Part shown: piece by piece, positions 56,012 to 64,000 of the stretch
How positions within the stretch are numbered: position 1 is the stretch's first letter
Layout of the letters: each line of letters begins with the position of its first letter
DNA from: Nitrospirota bacterium
Lineage (GTDB): Bacteria > JACPQY01
NCBI GenBank assembly: GCA_016180645.1
Contig: JACPAV010000025.1
Coordinates: 1 to 64,000 of the forward strand
Reading direction: 5' to 3'
DNA length: 64,000 nucleotides
Notes under the pieces: model-generated
Databases searched by the model: none
What the model was told of the DNA's origin: nothing
Seen by the model: the letters and a program-made list of their open reading frames with translations, nothing else
Position numbers and translations under genes: made by a program

Positions 56012-56091
56012 CCCACCACCTCCCACAGGCCGCAGAGCGGCCTCGGATCTAGCGGCTCGCTTGGCGAGCCGGTGGGAGGTGGTGGGATCAT
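56008..56091. repeat. Repeat B at a minus-strand gene junction
   Basis: Contains the stop of the 56088 gene and ATG 56011. Confidence 0.9.
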
Positions 56092-57635
56092 AGGCCGGCG
56101 CGGCTCAGAAGCCTGCGCACGGCGTCCACCCCGACTTCCAAATCCGACTTGGACAGAATCCGGTCGATCGTGTGGGGCCTAATCTCTGTCTCCACCTTGG
56201 CGCGAGCCCGATCGGTAAGCTCTTGCGAAACGGCGAGGTCCTTCGCGGCCGTTCCGATCTTGTCCGCCTGTTCCTCCGTGAGCGGCACGGCCCCCCAGCG
56301 CCTGAGCTGCTCCCTGTAGAGGCCAAGGTAGTAGAACCTTTCTTCAAGAACGTTTTCCATCCTTGAGACCAGAGCGTCATCCAGCGAACCCGGCTTGCGG
56401 CTCCCTTCGAGAATGATGCTGAAGAACTCCCGGCTGTCGGAGGCGAGGCGCTTCAAGTTGGATGCGACGGGGTCGAGCATTTCGAGCGGCTGGAACTGGG
56501 GATCTCCTTCGGGCGGCTTCCAGCGGCCGGAACCGGCGCGTGATGGCGTGGGGCCCGCGGCCTTGTTGCGGATCTCCTGTCCGCCTTGGCGGAACGCGGG
56601 TAGGCTCGCCGATTTGGTGGCGGTCCGGCAGCAGAACTTGTATTTCTTGCCGCTCCCGCAAGGGCAGGGGGCGTAGACATCGCCTGGAGGCATGCCGACC
56701 CCAGGCGTCACGTCCCGCCCTTTCAGGAGGTCTTCGGGAGCGAAACCGAGATTGTCCAGGTCGAGGTTCCCGTCGGCAAAATCACCCGCAAGGACGGAAC
56801 TGAGCGACCCCAGCATGGACTCGCTCTCCTTGCGCATCTGGTCCAGACGGTCTGTACCCACCCGGTGGAGGAGATCGTTGAGCGGCCCCCGGTTGCCGTT
56901 TTCCGCCTCGCGGCACGCCGCGTTGAACTCGTTCGAGATCTCGCCCCACTTTTCGCGCCACGCGGCCATGAGACCATCGCGATCCCGCACGCGCTCCTCG
57001 TGTGAGGAGGGACTCGCGACGGTTTCGGCAGGAGGCGTGAACGAGAGATCGAACCGCGCCCGTTCTTTCGCGTCGCCCAGGAGCGACGTCAGGAACCGGC
57101 TGCGGGCCGATCGGCCGACCTCCCGGAAGCCCTCGAAGGCCTTGGGAGAAAGATCCCGAACGTGTGCGAAGACGCGCGAGACCTTAAGGATGCCCTCCTG
57201 GACCGACGCGAGAACGCGGGCCATGTCGTCCCACGATTCTCGAATGAGGTCTTCATTGATTTCGGGCATCGTGGCCTCGGCGAAACCGAGCCGCCTGCGG
57301 ATCGCGGGTGGGGCCAGGATCGGGTAGACCCCCATGCGCTTCATGACGAGTTTCAGGCGGAAAGAGAGCATTTCCGTCAGGCCGAAGGCGAGGTCAACCC
57401 ACTCGGTGAACTTTCCGACTGATTTTTCGCGCTCCAACCGGAACCACTCGGAAGCATGCGGATACTCGTCGCGCGTGACGACCTTCTCCCCGGCAGGATC
57501 GGAACGCTTGCCGACCTCGGTGATGGCGAGACCGCGTGTCCGCGCGTCATCGAGGAGTTTGTCCAGGTGGGCGAAGACGAGAGGGAGATCCTCCTCGGTC
57601 ACGACCAAGTTGCGCGCGGGACACTTTTCAGCCAC
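56088..57635 (-). CDS. Tn3-DDE-fragment + SEC-C motif protein
   Basis: GGAGGA RBS with GTG; INEDLIRESWDDM.R..AS..EVGR..F (Tn3 TnpA segment); PCPCGSGKKYKFCC. Confidence 0.75.
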   Translation of the reverse strand: MAEKCPARNLVVTEEDLPLVFAHLDKLLDDARTRGLAITEVGKRSDPAGEKVVTRDEYPHASEWFRLEREKSVGKFTEWVDLAFGLTEMLSFRLKLVMKRMGVYPILAPPAIRRRLGFAEATMPEINEDLIRESWDDMARVLASVQEGILKVSRVFAHVRDLSPKAFEGFREVGRSARSRFLTSLLGDAKERARFDLSFTPPAETVASPSSHEERVRDRDGLMAAWREKWGEISNEFNAACREAENGNRGPLNDLLHRVGTDRLDQMRKESESMLGSLSSVLAGDFADGNLDLDNLGFAPEDLLKGRDVTPGVGMPPGDVYAPCPCGSGKKYKFCCRTATKSASLPAFRQGGQEIRNKAAGPTPSRAGSGRWKPPEGDPQFQPLEMLDPVASNLKRLASDSREFFSIILEGSRKPGSLDDALVSRMENVLEERFYYLGLYREQLRRWGAVPLTEEQADKIGTAAKDLAVSQELTDRARAKVETEIRPHTIDRILSKSDLEVGVDAVRRLLSRAGL

Positions 57636-57756
57636 CGGGATCCTCCATTGCGTGCCGTACCACGGCACATGCCGGGCCGTCAAGGTGAAGCACCGAAATC
57701 CGAGCGTTGAGTGCCTGGCCCCGGAAGGACATAATCCGGGCGTGGATTGGAGAATC

Positions 57757-59106
57757 ATGCTGACGGTCTTTCTGCTGCTTGCACCCGCCGGTGTCGGTTG
57801 CGCGGGTGACGGTGAGACATGCGGTTCGTCGGCGTCCTCCGTGACGCCGTTCCGCGCGGGAAAAGACTTCATCTACGACGCCTCGGAGAGGGTCACAATT
57901 CCGAGAGGTGTGAACGTCCCCGGCAACTACGACTATCCGTTCAAGTACACATCGGCGGATCTGGACCTGATCGCCTCTTTCGGCTTCAACTTCATCCGGC
58001 TCGGGATTTCCTGGAAGCACATGGAGCCGAAGGAAGGGACCTATGACATGGCGCACGTCGATCAATACCGAAACTTCATCCGTGAGGCGGGTGAGCGCGG
58101 CATCTATGCCATGATCGAGGTCCACCAAGTCAACTGGTGCATGAAAGGGGGCGACGTCCCCGAATGGATGTGCGAGGAAATACCCCCATTGTGGGACGAC
58201 CTCGGGACGATCCTTAAAGAGGCTGACCGCTTCTGGAAAAGCGAGGAACTTCGGGCCAAACTCATTCGCTTCTGGATATTTCTGGCTCGGAACTTCAACG
58301 ATCTTGACTCCCTTTTCGGCTATGACATCCTCAACGAGCCCACATCGAGTTACGGCATCCTTTTCGGGGAATTCGAGAAGTGTTGCCTCTTCCCCTTCTA
58401 CCGGAACGTCATTTCAGCCATAAGAGAGGTCGACTCGCGCAGACCCATTGCTCTGGAGCCGAACGTCCTTTCCACCGCGCTTCGCGACTACACCGAGCCC
58501 TTCCCCTACGACAACCTGCTGTTCTCGCCGCATCCCTACTTTCCCCACACCTACGGGGGGCAAGGGCTCATCATCTTGGCGAAAGAAACGCCTGTAGACA
58601 TCAGGGAAAAGTATGGGAGGTACGTCCAAGAGGCGAAAGTCATGGGCGTTCCTGTCCTTGTGGGCGAATACGGGGGTCCGGAAGAAGACAAGCATGACTT
58701 TGTGCCCGCGTGGTTGGAAGAAAGCCATCGAATGCAGGACCAGTATCTGTTGGGAGCCGCCTACTGGGTGTATAACCCCGACGACACGATGTGGTCCATC
58801 GTAGACAGGAACAGAACCCCGAAGCCCTACTATCTTGAGCGGCTCCGGCGACCCTACCCGAGATTCACCGCCGGCATCCCGCTCTCGCTTTCCTTCGACC
58901 GTTCGGAGGGGCACTTTTCCTACTCGTACGCGCCGTCCGGCGGCTCGTGCGGCACGACGGAGATATTCCTGCCGCAGGCCATGATGGAAACGGGCCACCT
59001 GCGCGTGGCGGGGGCGCGAAAATGGTCGTACGATCCGAGCCGGGAGGTGCTCGCTGTCGGGAGCGCGAGGGCGAAAGAAGTCCATGTCGAAATCGCGTCC
59101 GAGTAG
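57757..59106 (+). CDS. GH5 endoglycoceramidase-like glycoside hydrolase lipoprotein
   Basis: RGVNV, GFNFIRL..W..EP, H(Q), YDILNEP acid/base, PHPY, VGEYG nucleophile, RPYP..AG C-domain. Confidence 0.9.
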   Translation: MLTVFLLLAPAGVGCAGDGETCGSSASSVTPFRAGKDFIYDASERVTIPRGVNVPGNYDYPFKYTSADLDLIASFGFNFIRLGISWKHMEPKEGTYDMAHVDQYRNFIREAGERGIYAMIEVHQVNWCMKGGDVPEWMCEEIPPLWDDLGTILKEADRFWKSEELRAKLIRFWIFLARNFNDLDSLFGYDILNEPTSSYGILFGEFEKCCLFPFYRNVISAIREVDSRRPIALEPNVLSTALRDYTEPFPYDNLLFSPHPYFPHTYGGQGLIILAKETPVDIREKYGRYVQEAKVMGVPVLVGEYGGPEEDKHDFVPAWLEESHRMQDQYLLGAAYWVYNPDDTMWSIVDRNRTPKPYYLERLRRPYPRFTAGIPLSLSFDRSEGHFSYSYAPSGGSCGTTEIFLPQAMMETGHLRVAGARKWSYDPSREVLAVGSARAKEVHVEIASE

Positions 59107-60772: not shown

Positions 60773-62227
60773 TCAGGCGTGCCGCTCTTCCACCTTCTCC
60801 ACGAAGGCGAGAACTCTCGCGGCGAGTTCCCGGCCCCTGTGGACAGCGGCCTCGAACGCCCGGAGTTCCTCTCCACGCCCCTCGACGGCCGGATCCCCTC
60901 TCCACGCGTCCAGAAGGCGGCAGTACGCCAGGAGGGACTGGTTGTTCTGGGACCACCCCGAACGAATCCGACCGCAGACAACCGGATGGAGCGACCCTCT
61001 CAGGCGCGCGGCCTCCTCGATGATCCCGGCGAAGAAAACGGCGTTATCGAGCCAAGTCCCGACTTTTTCGCGAAGCTTCGGGAACTCATCGGAGGAGGGA
61101 ACAAGCGGATTGCCGTACCGGTCGGTCGGAGGCAGATCGAGCAGCTCGGGCCCGCTCCCGTCCAAACCGGGCTCGCCGAAAACCTGCCTGCGAATCCGGT
61201 TCACCGCGCCGATGATTTCCTTCAGGAAAGGCGACGGCGCAAAATCGGTCTCCTTGAGGTCTCCCGTCTGGAGGGCTTCGGCGACAAGAGACATAATCTG
61301 AAGCTGGAGCGCTTCGTGCTCCCGGAGCATCTCCTCGCGTTCATGTTCGGGTAAGGTATGAGCCACGCGGCGCGCCGCGGACTCGCCTCCCGAGACCTGA
61401 GCCGCCTGAACTTGCTTGAAGACCGATCCCCATCTCTCCTCGAAGACCTGGCGCCGCGCCATGAAGCTCACCCACCGAGGGTCACCCCAGTCAACCTGTC
61501 CGCGTCGCTCCGGACGGGGGCCGACGTAGTTGCCTTCCTTGTCGCGCCAGAGGGGCCAGTGAGGAACGAGTCGACGGTCCCGGAACTCTTTGTCCCTGAT
61601 ATAGCGCATGTAGAAAACGCTGCCGATCGCGCGACCAAGCTCCCGATACCCCTTGAACAGATGGGGGAACTCCACCGGCAGGCGTTCGAACGCCTTCGAG
61701 GCCGGCAGCCGATAGGTGAGAACGGAGGCGGCGATCCGACACATCTCGTCCCAATGCTCCTCGAAGTGCTTCTTCTTCACTACGCCTCCGAAACATTTCT
61801 GCGCCTTGGGCGGCAGCTTCTGGCCGGGCATGGAGTAGAGCTTGAAGGTGCTCCCCGGGGAGAGGAAGAGATGGAGCTCGAAGCCCATCAGGTGCATGAA
61901 ACCGAACGCGCAGTCGATCACTTCGCTCCTCGGTATCCCGGGCGGCCATCCCCGGACGGCGTCGCCCCCGCCCAGTTCGTAGTCCACGGGCATGGCCGCG
62001 ACGATTTCCTCTTCCTCGTTCCGAGGGAGCTTCGCGAGCGTCGTCCCCTGGCTTTCCGCGCGGTTCTTGAACCCGTCAATCAATCTGAAGGCGATAGGGA
62101 TCTCGGACTCGTGCGCGACGAAGATTTTCGGGATGGAAGTGAGCTTCTCCTCCAACGATCCTCCGACTCCGCTTTCGTAGCACTTGACCCGCCGCGCGTC
62201 AACGGCATCCACCCACGGGTGTTGCAC
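60773..62227 (-). CDS. Tn3-DDE-fragment protein (paralog of 56088-57635)
   Basis: AFGFMHLMGF..LY..EEHWDEM.RIAAS..AS..RL..ELGR..F..YI.D..FR. Confidence 0.75.
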   Translation of the reverse strand: MQHPWVDAVDARRVKCYESGVGGSLEEKLTSIPKIFVAHESEIPIAFRLIDGFKNRAESQGTTLAKLPRNEEEEIVAAMPVDYELGGGDAVRGWPPGIPRSEVIDCAFGFMHLMGFELHLFLSPGSTFKLYSMPGQKLPPKAQKCFGGVVKKKHFEEHWDEMCRIAASVLTYRLPASKAFERLPVEFPHLFKGYRELGRAIGSVFYMRYIRDKEFRDRRLVPHWPLWRDKEGNYVGPRPERRGQVDWGDPRWVSFMARRQVFEERWGSVFKQVQAAQVSGGESAARRVAHTLPEHEREEMLREHEALQLQIMSLVAEALQTGDLKETDFAPSPFLKEIIGAVNRIRRQVFGEPGLDGSGPELLDLPPTDRYGNPLVPSSDEFPKLREKVGTWLDNAVFFAGIIEEAARLRGSLHPVVCGRIRSGWSQNNQSLLAYCRLLDAWRGDPAVEGRGEELRAFEAAVHRGRELAARVLAFVEKVEERHA

Positions 62228-62345
62228 GCCTGCGTACCCCTGTTCAACCGGTGCGTCAAAAGCCGGTCCCGCATGCCGGAGGAATATCGAGCCGAAGGCG
62301 CAACGTTCGGCCTCGTCTCCCCGACAGAACCGTCACTTGAACTTC

Positions 62346-62419
62346 CGGTCCCGGCCGGACTTGAACCGGCTTTCTCCGCCTTGACGGGGCGGCGTCTCGA
62401 CTGCTTCGACTTCGGGACC
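62346..62419 (-). tRNA. tRNA-Asp(GTC)
   Basis: Cloverleaf folded by hand; anticodon loop CC-GTC-AA; G73. Confidence 0.85.
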
Positions 62420-62471
62420 CTCGCTCCTGCCCGGATTGGAACCGAGGTCTACGGCAGGAGCCTGGAAACTG

Positions 62472-62543
62472 TGGCCCGTGCGAGAGTCGCACTCGCTTCA
62501 CCGGATTGAAAGTCCAGTATCCTAACTCGTAGACGAACGGGCC
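62472..62543 (-). tRNA. tRNA-Glu(TTC)
   Basis: Acceptor GGCCCGT/ACGGGCC; loop CT-TTC-AA; T-loop TGCGACT. Confidence 0.85.
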
Positions 62544-62544
62544 G

Positions 62545-62617
62545 TGGCTCGAAAAGGATTCGCACCTTTGCCTGCGCCTTATGAGAGCGCCGTGCCTGCT
62601 GATTACACCATCGAGCC
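62545..62617 (-). tRNA. tRNA-Met or Ile2 (CAT)
   Basis: GGCTCGA/TCGAGCC; loop CT-CAT-AA; T-loop TGCGAAT. Confidence 0.85.
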
Positions 62618-62619
62618 TC

Positions 62620-62694
62620 TGGTAGCGGGTCCAGGATTTGCACCTGGGATCTCGTGGTTATGAGCCACGCGAGATACTACTTCTCCAACCCGCG
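62620..62694 (-). tRNA. Initiator-like tRNA-fMet(CAT)
   Basis: C1:U72 mismatch, CGCGGG start, encoded CCA. Confidence 0.85.
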
Positions 62695-62784
62695 ATCAGG
62701 AGCTCGACTATTGAAAGTAGTGTGGTAGGTTATCGCTCGCGCATTCGCGGGCGATCTTCGTAGAAGGATTCCGCGCCCATCCGG

Positions 62785-62855
62785 ACACGGCTGCGGGAGT
62801 TGCACCCGCCTGATGTGGGTTGCAGCCACACGCCTACCTGCTCGGCCAAGCCGTG
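62785..62855 (-). tRNA. tRNA-Cys(GCA)
   Basis: CACGGCT/AGCCGTG; loop CT-GCA-AC; U73. Confidence 0.85.
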
Positions 62856-62919
62856 CGCGGATAAACGCGGACTACAGTCCGTCTCGAAAGAAATCGTTAC
62901 AGCCATCGTGTGATCTCCG

Positions 62920-62992
62920 CTGGGGAGGTGGGTCTCGATCCCACAACTTCCTGATTAACAGTCAGGCCCGTTGCCGATTGCGGTACTCCCCA
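62920..62992 (-). tRNA. tRNA-Asn(GTT)
   Basis: TGGGGAG/CTCCCCA; loop CT-GTT-AA; G73. Confidence 0.85.
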
Positions 62993-63084
62993 GCGCAGAC
63001 CACGCGCCAGAGAGTTCCTATTGCCCGGACCCAGTTTCTTCATGCCCATCATGGTACTCCTTTCGTCATTCTCTCGTCAAACTT

Positions 63085-63156
63085 CAGGGAAGCAGGGACT
63101 CGAACCCTGGTCTGCGCTTTTGGAGAGCGCATGATTGGCCGCCATCTTCCTCCCCT
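63085..63156 (-). tRNA. tRNA-Trp(CCA)
   Basis: AGGGGAG/CTTCCCT; loop CT-CCA-AA; weak D-arm. Confidence 0.8.
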
Positions 63157-63158
63157 GT

Positions 63159-63230
63159 TCGGCGCGGGAAGGTACGATCTTCCGTCTGTCGGTTATAAGC
63201 CGACTGCTCTCCCTATTGAGCTACACGCCG
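63159..63230 (-). tRNA. tRNA-Ile(TAT)
   Basis: D-stem GCTC/GAGC; anticodon arm GTCGG-CT-TAT-AA-CCGAC; A73. Confidence 0.8.
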
Positions 63231-63237
63231 TAACCTT

Positions 63238-63323
63238 CGGAAGGTGAGGGAATTGAACCCCCGCCGGACGTGCCGGGATCGGTTAGCAACCGATTGCGAC
63301 AAACCGACATTCGCCTACCTTCC
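63238..63323 (-). tRNA. tRNA-Ser(GCT)
   Basis: Long variable arm; loop TT-GCT-AA; G73. Confidence 0.85.
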
Positions 63324-63327
63324 AAGC

Positions 63328-63402
63328 TGGAGCCTCCGGCCAGTATTGATCTGGCTTCTCCGCGTTACGAGTGCGGTGCATCACCTTTTATGCTTCAGAG
63401 GC
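63328..63402 (-). tRNA. tRNA-Thr(CGT)
   Basis: GCCTCTG/CGGAGGC; loop CT-CGT-AA; encoded CCA. Confidence 0.8.
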
Positions 63403-63405
63403 ACG

Positions 63406-63477
63406 AGCCGCCGGAGGGCGTCGATCCCTCTTTTCCTGGGTACAGGCCAGGCGTCTTTCCATCTCGACCTCAGCGGC
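63406..63477 (-). tRNA. tRNA-Thr(TGT)
   Basis: GCCGCTG/CGGCGGC; loop CC-TGT-AC. Confidence 0.75.
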
Positions 63478-63484
63478 AGAACTT

Positions 63485-63555
63485 TGCGGGAGCGGGGACT
63501 TGATCCCCGGCTTCAGGCTTGGAAGGCCCGCTTGCTTCCACTACAACACTCCCGC
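63485..63555 (-). tRNA. tRNA-Gly(TCC)
   Basis: GCGGGAG/CTCCCGC; loop CT-TCC-AA; A73. Confidence 0.85.
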
Positions 63556-63562
63556 TCATGTT

Positions 63563-63749
63563 TGCGCGGGGCCGGCCTCGATCCGGCATGGACCTGTGTG
63601 TAGGACAGGCGGCTCTCCATTCACCCCGCACCAATCCCGAAACAAGCGTGTTGATGTTGAAAACACGAAAGGCGAAGCCGCCTTCGGCTACAAATCAACA
63701 CCTGTGCAGACGCAAACACAGGATTGGTGCGGGGTTCGCCTACCCGCGC
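63563..63749 (-). tRNA. tRNA-Val(TAC) interrupted by a ~115-nt D-loop insertion
   Basis: 5' part GCGCGGG-TA-GGC-GAA (63749-63735) and 3' part (63622-63563) join into a standard 72-nt cloverleaf once one GAA copy is removed. Confidence 0.75.
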
Positions 63750-63757
63750 TTCAAATT

Positions 63758-63829
63758 TGCGGAGTGCGGGCTTCGATCCCCACCCTTCCGCATACCAAAC
63801 GGACGCACATCCAACCGTGCTCTAGCGGC
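63758..63829 (-). pseudogene. Chimeric/pseudo tRNA-Thr(GGT)
   Basis: D and anticodon arms intact (TT-GGT-AT), but 5' GCCGCTA does not pair with 3' ACTCCGC. Confidence 0.6.
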
Positions 63830-63836
63830 GAAACTT

Positions 63837-63923
63837 CGGAGAGGGTGGGATTCGGACCCACGTCCGCCGGTCGGCGGATTCGGTTTTCAGGACCGATGCC
63901 TTCAACCACTCGGCCACCTCTCC
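63837..63923 (-). tRNA. tRNA-Ser(TGA)
   Basis: GGAGAGG/CCTCTCC; loop CC-TGA-AA; long variable arm. Confidence 0.85.
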
Positions 63924-63928
63924 CAACT

Positions 63929-64000
63929 TGGCGGTAGCGGGAGGGGTCGAACCTCCAGTCCACGTCTTCACGGGACGCCGCCTTTCCACGACGGCGGTTT
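63929..64000 (-). tRNA. 3' part of a tRNA-like gene, truncated by the window edge, identity uncertain
   Basis: T-arm GGAGG-TTCGACC-CCTCC, then CGCTACC-G-CCA. Confidence 0.6.

Follow-up and report, generated by a model that had tools for sequence, protein, structure and literature searches.

A GIY-YIG-linked miniature element probably interrupts the D-loop of an accessory tRNA-Val(UAC)-like gene in a Nitrospirae genome

A tRNA-Val(UAC)-like gene near the right end of the window (the whole stretch of 64,000 nucleotides analysed here) is split in its D-loop by a segment that entered the DNA at the tetranucleotide TGAA and duplicated these four nucleotides. The window corresponds to G000:C29:1-64000, where G000 is the source genome (4.7 Mb in 65 contigs); a genome of the sister genus is designated G001. 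We consider it likely that the segment is a MITE belonging to a family linked to small GIY-YIG nuclease genes, that the gene it entered is an accessory one, and that this gene is most likely dead. As an explanation of the locus this is ordinary; as a member of what is apparently an undescribed nuclease-linked family, the case is well bounded.

The split gene occupies positions 63563 to 63749 of the minus strand, within a tRNA array on the same strand that begins at the right end of the window. ARAGORN predicted 26 tRNA genes between positions 62471 and 67783 of C29, and Rfam added three tRNA genes to that set within the window. Direct reading of the sequence shows the D-loop interrupted by a strongly folding insert. 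The 5' fragment (63735-63749, minus strand, 15 nt), delimited by comparison with the intact paralogue at C21:22719-22790, comprises the 7-nt acceptor strand, nucleotides 8 and 9 and the start of the D-arm. The 3' fragment (63563-63623, minus strand, 61 nt) comprises the remainder of the D-loop and D-stem, the anticodon arm, the T-arm, and the 3' strand of the acceptor with the discriminator; this 3' part is 98% identical over 63 nt to C21:22719-22781. On inspection, the gene has the anticodon TAC, an anticodon loop CCTACAC (with C33), a T-loop ATCGAGG (with A54) and a D-stem of 3 bp, and its acceptor stem is a perfect 7 bp. When the element and one copy of the duplication (115 nt together) were excised in silico, the remaining 72 nt were called tRNA-Val(tac) by ARAGORN, and the unspliced sequence received no call. 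The gene therefore reads as the initial annotation had it, that is, as a tRNA-Val(UAC) split by a structured insert in the D-loop. Its description of the joined sequence as a standard cloverleaf stands for the length of 72 nt and the perfect acceptor stem; C33, A54, the 3-bp D-stem and a paralogue without an Rfam match are not standard.

The 187-nt locus has a predicted folding energy of -93.2 kcal/mol (z = -5.64; an equally good fold was found in 0 of 200 shuffles), and in the predicted fold the insert forms a single long hairpin that leaves the cloverleaf arms free. The split gene is flanked downstream by tRNA-Gly(TCC) (63485-63555, minus strand), whose position is syntenic with the C21 array, and upstream by tRNA-Ser(TGA) (63837-63923, minus strand), both called by ARAGORN and Rfam. 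Between these two genes no gene was called by ARAGORN, by Rfam at gathering score, or by Rfam at E values up to 10 (search of 62200-64000). The spacer at 63750-63836 (minus strand) contains a degenerate tRNA-Thr(GGT)-like remnant, weakly aligned to the Thr(ggt) gene of C21 (local score 11) and called by neither ARAGORN nor Rfam. It is a matter of context, showing that the C29 copy of the array is decaying.

A second, paralogous tRNA array is present on C21, where ARAGORN predicted 30 genes whose order is almost that of C29. It supplies the empty site: C21:22719-22790 is an uninterrupted 72-nt tRNA-Val(tac) gene with a single TGAA in its D-loop. The excised C29 gene is identical to this paralogue at 69 to 70 of 72 positions, compared to 48 to 50 of 74 for the housekeeping tRNA-Val(UAC) at C23:71571-71644. 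Since the paralogue has a single TGAA where the split gene reads CGAA-element-TGAA, the insertion duplicated 4 nt, and the 5' copy later changed once. The filled and the empty site thus form a natural pair inside one genome, and this pair fixes both the boundaries of the element and the target duplication. The intact paralogue is itself an unusual tRNA gene: on inspection it shares the atypical C33, A54 and 3-bp D-stem, and it was accepted by ARAGORN; the RF00005 model gave no match to it, either at gathering score or with E values up to 10. The initial annotation had made its reading depend on the joined sequence passing tRNA covariance models. The result is a proxy, in that the paralogue, identical at 70 of 72 positions, has no RF00005 match, and ARAGORN accepts the joined sequence itself.

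The junctions were also recovered in other assemblies. A Logan contig of run X1 spans positions 63569 to 64000, including both junctions, with 0 differences, and another spans 62946 to 63591; X1 may be the source sample, so that the assembler is a different one but the DNA is not independent. Contigs from two groundwater runs of two other studies (X5 and X8) track the window up to position 63622, which is the edge of the element, and then diverge; the X8 contig rejoins the window at 63843, after 193 differing letters. Judged from these breakpoints, the divergence fits related arrays that would lack the insert.

The element itself is non-coding and 111 nt long (63624-63734, on the minus strand, which is the forward orientation of the family profile), with boundaries taken from its inverted repeats and flanks. 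The left terminal inverted repeat, CCCCGCACCAATCC, lies at 63721-63734, and the right one, GGATTGGTGCGGGG on the minus strand, at 63624-63637; both are 14 nt long and on the minus strand. They match perfectly (14/14), and the flanking A-T pair extends the helix to 15 bp. A central block, GGCGGCTTCGCC on the forward strand of the element, lies at 63671-63682 (minus strand), at an offset of about 52 nt, as in the 'standard' short elements. The target duplication consists of CGAA on the 5' side (63735-63738, minus strand), with one mismatch to TGAA, and of TGAA on the 3' side (63620-63623, minus strand), the same word as the single TGAA of the intact paralogue; 3 of 4 positions match. These boundaries refine the first measurements. 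The total of 115 nt to be removed is unchanged, and the family evidence divides it into 111 nt plus a 4-nt duplication in place of 112 nt plus GAA. The 15-bp closing helix corresponds to the 14-bp inverted repeat plus one A-T pair. The proposal of a MITE with a 3-bp target duplication holds for the MITE, the duplication being 4 nt (TGAA, of which the 5' copy is now CGAA).

The nhmmer family profile scored 70.3 bits on the minus strand of the insert, against 14.9 bits on the plus strand. As every copy scored far higher in one orientation, the elements have polarity. By BLAST, the interior of the insert has no second copy in G000, and relatives of it were found in only two places, both in G001 (77 to 78% identity over 66 to 68 nt), when 40 other genomes were searched; G001 is of the same taxonomic family as G000. 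A comparison with Rfam, which the initial annotation had proposed, gave no family match for the insert at gathering score or at E values up to 10, and five related loci were also without a match.

At the level of its ends, the element is one of many. The 14-nt end CCCCGCACC(A/T)ATCC has 18 exact matches in G000 and its reversed control has 0; with one mismatch allowed, the counts are 31 and 3. A pattern search found 12 cases in which two of these ends face each other in inverted orientation at a distance of about 110 nt, and the nhmmer profile recovered 13 full-length copies and one partial copy, dispersed at unrelated sites. Other copies and an empty site, which it had been suggested to look for, are thus both at hand, as 13 full-length family copies in G000 (the interior of the insert not being repeated among them) and the uninterrupted C21 gene. 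The initial annotation had also foreseen that its functional readings would suffer if the insert proved to be an abundant genome-wide MITE and no mature or precursor RNA were made, and for the MITE part this is what was found.

Flanks were compared for 21 copies, 13 in G000 and 8 in G001. Direct repeats of 4 nt abutting the ends were exact in 13 of them, 3 nt were repeated in 5, and 3 had none; the insert in the C29 tRNA gene, with its 3/4 match, was scored among these last 3. In the control, where left and right flanks were drawn from different copies, 33 of 420 combinations matched at 4 nt. The duplicated words included TTCA, TGAA, TGGA, TTGA, TCAA, CACG and CGCG, with a preference for T-N-N-A and with TGAA among the commonest. 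Because these tetranucleotides vary from copy to copy, they derive from the target and are not part of the element. Taken together, the inverted ends, the target duplications, the dispersed copies and the empty site identify a MITE. The two G001 relatives of the interior adjoin the 5' ends of two tRNA-Leu genes, with anticodons CAG and CAA; relative to the tRNA they point the other way from the C29 insert, and the last GGG of the element end coincides with nucleotides 1 to 3 of the tRNA. As a separate observation, a TACAAT-like -10 box brought by these relatives precedes the tRNA-Leu genes.

The family extends well beyond these two genomes. End matches numbered 14+16 in G001 (2+1 in the control) and 12+12 in a Moranbacteria genome of 1 Mb (0 in the control). 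A scan of the genome collection for the paired-end pattern returned five stretches in four MAGs, three of them Patescibacteria. In metagenomes, a slightly degenerate pattern, which required both ends by construction, returned at least 120 contigs with 122 elements, whose lengths peak at 110 to 112 nt and whose median locus GC content is 0.43, among the matches listed. From these sequence matches we consider the family, as defined by the ends CCCCRCACCWATYC, to be large and cross-phylum (Nitrospirae and Patescibacteria). The central block GGCGGCTTCGCC was present with at most two mismatches in 61 of 126 elements among the matches listed, at offsets of 47 to 59 nt (51 to 53 nt in 56 of the 61), and its columns are almost invariant in the family alignment. 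For 59 copies with this block, RNAalifold gave consensus support for the 14-bp terminal helix only. Three variable end pairs covary, with double changes in 27, 16 and 29 of the 59 copies and no G-U intermediates, a covariation for which inverted repeats in DNA account no less well than an RNA helix does. An exact flank repeat of at least 4 nt was found by a naive test in 16 of the 122 metagenome elements among the matches listed; longer ends (AC|CCCC...GGGG|GT) distinguish the CCCCACACC subfamily, and they set its boundary differently. In G042 and G001, apparently single ends (14 regions) had, for the most part, a short partner carrying two or more mismatches.

Among the 122 metagenome elements in the matches listed, 12 had a tRNA within 300 nt and 2 lay inside a tRNA gene, and a tRNA-specific character of the family as a whole was rejected on these counts. 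Five independent insertions into tRNA genes were nevertheless seen, all of them in loops: the D-loop in the C29 gene and in L047, L082, L086 and L087; the anticodon loop in L013 and L087; and the T-loop in L012. This placement could hint at more than target composition. The genes that were hit show decay: the 5' acceptor strand of the outer tRNA is unpaired in L047, its anticodon stem is broken in L012, and the outer tRNA genes of L086 and L087 are truncated. In some relatives, such as L013, the cargo is an entire tRNA gene. None of 401 Patescibacteria genomes yielded a tRNA-carrying element with a strict pattern, which misses even L013, and this count is thus uninformative on their frequency.

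The link to a nuclease came from longer elements with the same ends. In G001, some pairs of these ends are 300 to 302 nt apart. Two such elements, G001:C33:26353-26654 and G001:C37:36055-36354, have identical 14-nt ends within inverted repeats of 19 to 20 nt, and each contains a single open reading frame, of 93 and 89 aa, respectively, which begins a few bases past the left end. Both products match Pfam GIY-YIG (PF01541; E = 1e-11 and 3e-12), and both pass the curated cut-off. G000 has a comparable element of 299 nt (C53:63135-63433), with ends CCCCGCACCTTTYC of the pattern CCCCGCACCTTT(T/C)C and an intact 92-aa homologue (C53:63153-63410) that is 60% identical to the G001 nuclease. The reading frames of G000:C53 and G001:C33 run through the right end and stop at a TGA just outside it, and that of G001:C37 stops within the right end. 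A six-frame search found nuclease homologues in all five genomes with short elements (3 in G000, 4 in G001, 7 in G042, 4 in G043 and 1 in G044). When 16 of these 19 matches were examined, leaving out the three weakest, 13 of the small GIY-YIG genes were flanked by inverted repeats of their own, 13 to 20 nt long, in units of 277 to 330 nt. By arithmetic alone, a perfect 13-mer common to two 100-nt stretches would be expected by chance in about 1 of 10,000 trials.

The sequences of the inverted repeats differ among nuclease subfamilies. No nuclease copy with the exact AATCC-type ends of the C29 insert was found in the elements examined; the ends of the G000 nuclease element match those of the insert at 12 of 14 positions, and G001 offers an exact match to the TATCC subtype. 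Between long and short elements, similarity is limited to the ends (15 to 24 nt), and tblastn found no nuclease remnant in the short copies. The only PDB relative of the nuclease by sequence is the UPF0213 protein 1zg2 (E = 5.6e-4), and NCBIfam gave no match. The nuclease-bearing elements of about 300 nt are likely candidates for the parents of the short ones.

The identity of the mobilising enzyme is where a rival reading has most to offer. Terminal inverted repeats with a duplication of 3 to 4 nt are the textbook signature of a DDE transposon, the ends alone are common to the long and short elements, and insertion sequence copies are often lost from MAG assemblies. The MITE could then have been moved by a classical DDE-type transposase that went unseen, with the GIY-YIG genes as passengers or as a separate selfish layer. 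We regard this as unlikely, however. Neither G000 nor the fetched loci from L007 onwards contained a pair of ends 400 to 4,000 nt apart around an open reading frame of transposase size, whereas most of the small GIY-YIG genes examined (13/16) are bounded by inverted repeats and such genes accompany the short elements in every one of the five genomes. For G000 in particular, the search for an autonomous partner of classical size gave no convincing pair at 400 to 4,000 nt, the matches being low-similarity noise in a GC-rich genome. Of the six long end pairs in the fetched loci from L007 onwards, five were two neighbouring short elements and the sixth was L114. Naming a DDE family from the end sequence and the duplication length was considered and rejected.

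The remaining alternatives concern the RNA, or the assembly. A miniature intron, as first proposed, would be excised from the transcript to give a working tRNA-Val, perhaps through a cut at the foot of the long helix and subsequent ligation. The otherwise intact tRNA halves with their perfect acceptor stem, the very stable closed helix with the arms free in the predicted fold, and the restriction of all five independent tRNA insertions to loops would suit it. It is nonetheless very improbable, as the majority of copies in the family are found away from RNA genes, with target duplications that arose in DNA, the insert matches no ribozyme or intron in Rfam and lacks a bulge-helix-bulge, the interrupted outer tRNAs elsewhere are decayed or replaced, and the paralogue, although uninterrupted, is itself not recognised by the tRNA covariance model; nor is any such bacterial pathway known to us. 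Less probable still is a functional RNA domain, which the initial annotation had also proposed for the tRNA; the insert would be kept as such a domain of the tRNA or of the array transcript (a processing signal, a sponge or an antisense promoter). The central block, which roughly half of the family has conserved in a fixed place, and the -10-like box before the tRNA-Leu genes in the G001 relatives, could be cited in its favour. The insert is, however, absent from the paralogous array and, by breakpoint, from related arrays of other samples, its orientation relative to the tRNA is reversed in G001, the consensus fold supports the terminal helix only, many copies lie outside tRNA genes, and the element matches no Rfam family. 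An assembly artefact that joined a repeat into the tRNA gene hardly deserves credence: chimeric joins at repeats can occur in metagenome bins, but the X1 contig covers both junctions without a difference (with another assembler, and maybe from the same sample), and a chimera would not yield a 4-nt duplication of the exact paralogous site.

We therefore return to a MITE insertion linked to the GIY-YIG family. A non-autonomous MITE of 111 nt would have entered TGAA in the D-loop and duplicated it. A GIY-YIG nuclease acting in trans would recognise the ends and move the element, making a staggered cut of 4 nt at T-N-N-A-like targets. That the nuclease recognises the ends in trans and drives the movement has, on sequence grounds, an even chance of being correct or one slightly better than that; we know of no experimental precedent for a GIY-YIG nuclease performing insertion with target duplication. 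The insertion is recent, judging by the perfect ends, by tRNA halves that show no other damage and by the single change in the duplication. The split gene is very probably non-functional, because there is no known bacterial pathway of removal, no bulge-helix-bulge and no ribozyme match, and because the tRNA genes hit by the family elsewhere are decayed or truncated and the paralogue is itself atypical. To our knowledge, no bacterial pathway would cut a hairpin of this sort out of a precursor tRNA. The C29 copy would be dispensable, given the uninterrupted C21 paralogue and a canonical housekeeping tRNA-Val(UAC). A wider proposal is made tentatively, since we find it slightly more likely to fail than to hold: the insert may be a passenger-less copy of what is possibly the smallest self-contained type of transposon (about 300 bp, with inverted ends and a GIY-YIG nuclease of about 90 aa), whose family would pass between phyla (Nitrospirae and Patescibacteria), would have entered tRNA loops repeatedly, and in some variants would bring a replacement tRNA of the same identity within the broken gene.

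At this locus, an apparent bacterial tRNA intron in a D-loop turns out to be an insertion at the DNA level, and an attractive misreading is thereby set aside; further cases of this kind will be encountered by tRNA-finding programs and by annotators. With this result, the known range of a family of very small nuclease-linked elements, itself largely undescribed, reaches beyond ultra-small bacteria, into a Nitrospirae genome of 4.7 Mb and into accessory tRNA arrays. If the nuclease were the mobiliser, this would be a new chemistry of bacterial transposition, and possibly a source of compact site-specific DNA tools.

Several known systems can be compared with the element. Bacterial MITEs include the Correia/NEMIS elements of Neisseria, the Rickettsia palindromic elements, RUP and Nezha. 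The insert resembles them in being of about 100 to 150 nt, non-coding, with terminal inverted repeats, a short target duplication, dispersed copies and the potential to form a hairpin, and they too can land inside genes, RNA genes included. It differs in that the sole gene found between matching ends encodes a GIY-YIG nuclease of about 90 aa and not a DDE transposase, in that Nitrospirae and Patescibacteria, two different phyla, have almost the same 14-nt ends, and in that some relatives have a tRNA as cargo. Group I introns interrupt bacterial tRNA genes in the anticodon loop and are longer than 200 nt. The interruption of a bacterial tRNA gene is the shared feature; the insert has no ribozyme core or Rfam match, is 111 nt long, lies in the D-loop with a target duplication, and has most of its family copies outside tRNA genes. 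Archaeal tRNA introns of the bulge-helix-bulge type that occupy non-canonical positions were reportedly discussed by Fujishima et al. in 2010 in terms of 'transposition'. As cited in PMC10714607, and as far as that source relates them, they are also short structured insertions, may occupy the D-loop and can have related copies in several tRNA genes; here, in contrast, the host is bacterial, there are DNA target duplications and the copies are mostly outside tRNA genes. In the predicted structure, a bulge-helix-bulge is absent from the insert junctions, both of which lie at the base of a continuous 15-bp helix.

The closest published system is that of the Ssn nucleases with their hairpin repeats. 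In the portion of the report available to us (Chenal et al. 2025, Nat Commun 16:2388, PMC11893778), Ssn proteins are described as site-specific GIY-YIG nucleases of single-stranded DNA that cut beside NTS/SRM hairpin repeats. According to the same portion, their genes have the cognate repeat on both sides and many further copies of it in the genome, a layout that the authors liken to an insertion sequence, and the role demonstrated is a modulation of transformation (PMC11893778). The likeness concerns the relatives of about 300 nt and not the insert itself: in both systems, as that portion presents Ssn, a small single-domain GIY-YIG gene lies between repeats that are also dispersed in the genome. 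NTS/SRM are there hairpins of about 28 nt that fold on themselves, whereas the ends seen here are, by inspection, the two halves of one inverted repeat. Target duplications and insertions into genes are not described in that portion of PMC11893778; the elements analysed here are discrete insertions with target duplications. Literature searches found neither nuclease-bearing mini-elements with inverted repeats nor their insertion into tRNA genes, and the supplementary tables of Chenal et al. may already list the present subfamily. Ssn belongs to the CDD family cd10448, of which the nuclease described here is at most a candidate member; its PDB relative is a UPF0213 protein. A minor observation concerns the ends of the nuclease genes: in two of the three copies the TGA stop lies just past the right end of the element, and the duplicated target of the C29 insert also starts with TGA.

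Two accessory tRNA arrays, paralogous to each other, are carried by the genome studied (G000). The first occupies window positions 62346-64000 and continues to C29:67783, with 26 genes according to ARAGORN; the second, located at C21:21779-25649, contains 30 genes according to the same program. Identity between the array tRNAs and the housekeeping tRNAs is only about 65% (48 to 50 positions out of 74 for Val), and contigs 88 to 99% alike are present in groundwater runs of other studies. The C29 array is adjoined by Tn3-family transposase gene fragments (Pfam PF01526), found on the minus strand at window positions 56088-57872 and 60773-62227.

The tRNA finders disagreed on the array genes. Three tRNAs of the window, all on the minus strand (62346-62419, 63331-63402 and 63406-63477), scored above the Rfam threshold (45 to 52 bits), yet they were missed by ARAGORN; the opposite case was the Val(TAC) type of the arrays, which was found by ARAGORN only. 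Unusual members were also encountered. In the C21 array, a minus-strand tRNA with the anticodon TTA, labelled 'tRNA-Stop' by ARAGORN (C21:23835-23910, which is L002:2580-2655), is an ochre-suppressor-like gene, and a 'tRNA-Asn(att)' is 93 nt long (C21:24546-24638). The place of Thr(ggt) and Gly(gcc) in this array is occupied, in the C29 array, by a degenerate tRNA-Thr(GGT)-like remnant (window 63750-63836, minus strand). This remnant was not called by any tRNA finder, from which we conclude that the C29 copy of the array is losing members.

Some elements of the family, with the same or variant ends, bear a complete tRNA gene and are nested in a second tRNA gene, which is broken and has the identity of the carried one. 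They were found among the fetched loci at L013:2923-3030, L012:66-207, L082:2020-2124 and L087 (about 1153-1268), all on the minus strand, and at L047:7651-7757 on the plus strand. The carried gene is a Glu within the anticodon loop of a Glu, a Lys(CTT) within the T-loop of a Lys(CTT), or a Val(TAC) within a Val(TAC), the site being in this last case the D-loop or the anticodon loop. Locus L087 is layered: the D-loop of its outer Val gene holds a standard element, that is, one of the short type with the conserved central block, and the element bearing a tRNA gene, which has ends CCCCGTTAGATT(T)C, lies in the anticodon loop. Downstream follow two orphan 3' halves of Val genes. The target duplication is absent at the tRNA-carrying elements of these loci. 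The presence of such elements in tRNA genes of the same identity looks like a 'replace what you break' pattern.

Two close relatives of the insert, in a genome of the sister genus (G001; L004, about 1462-1567, and L006, about 1456-1565), each adjoin a tRNA-Leu gene at its 5' end, the anticodons being CAG and CAA. The final GGG of the element end also constitutes nucleotides 1 to 3 of the tRNA-Leu, at which a TACAAT box within the element is directed. At 5 of the 13 short G000 copies (C13:2981-3093, C20:19552-19663, C20:37265-37374, C20:38991-39102 and C47:82416-82529), the TGA stop of a long ORF (114 to 702 aa, measured between stops) lies inside or immediately beside the target duplication, and long ORFs also begin at the edge of several short copies. 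In a GC-rich genome where spurious ORFs are common, this is only a hint that short elements sit exactly on gene boundaries. Some elements with non-standard interiors were found inside long ORFs: the one at L114:7344-7445 lies within a 777-aa ORF, and in L078 both copies (2-125 and 1482-1605) are traversed by ORFs. These positions suggest that the elements inserted into protein genes in frame.

Size also varies within the family. Two G000 copies of one subfamily, C20:71512-71656 and C20:109243-109355, are distinguished by a palindromic block of 32 nt; the 145-nt copy is thus a 113-nt copy plus a nested hairpin. Elements of about 210 nt with the same ends, present in G001 (C6:18542-18752, C74:47465-47676 and C4:3226-3433), are an intermediate size class; they lack the standard core as well as any remnant of the nuclease.
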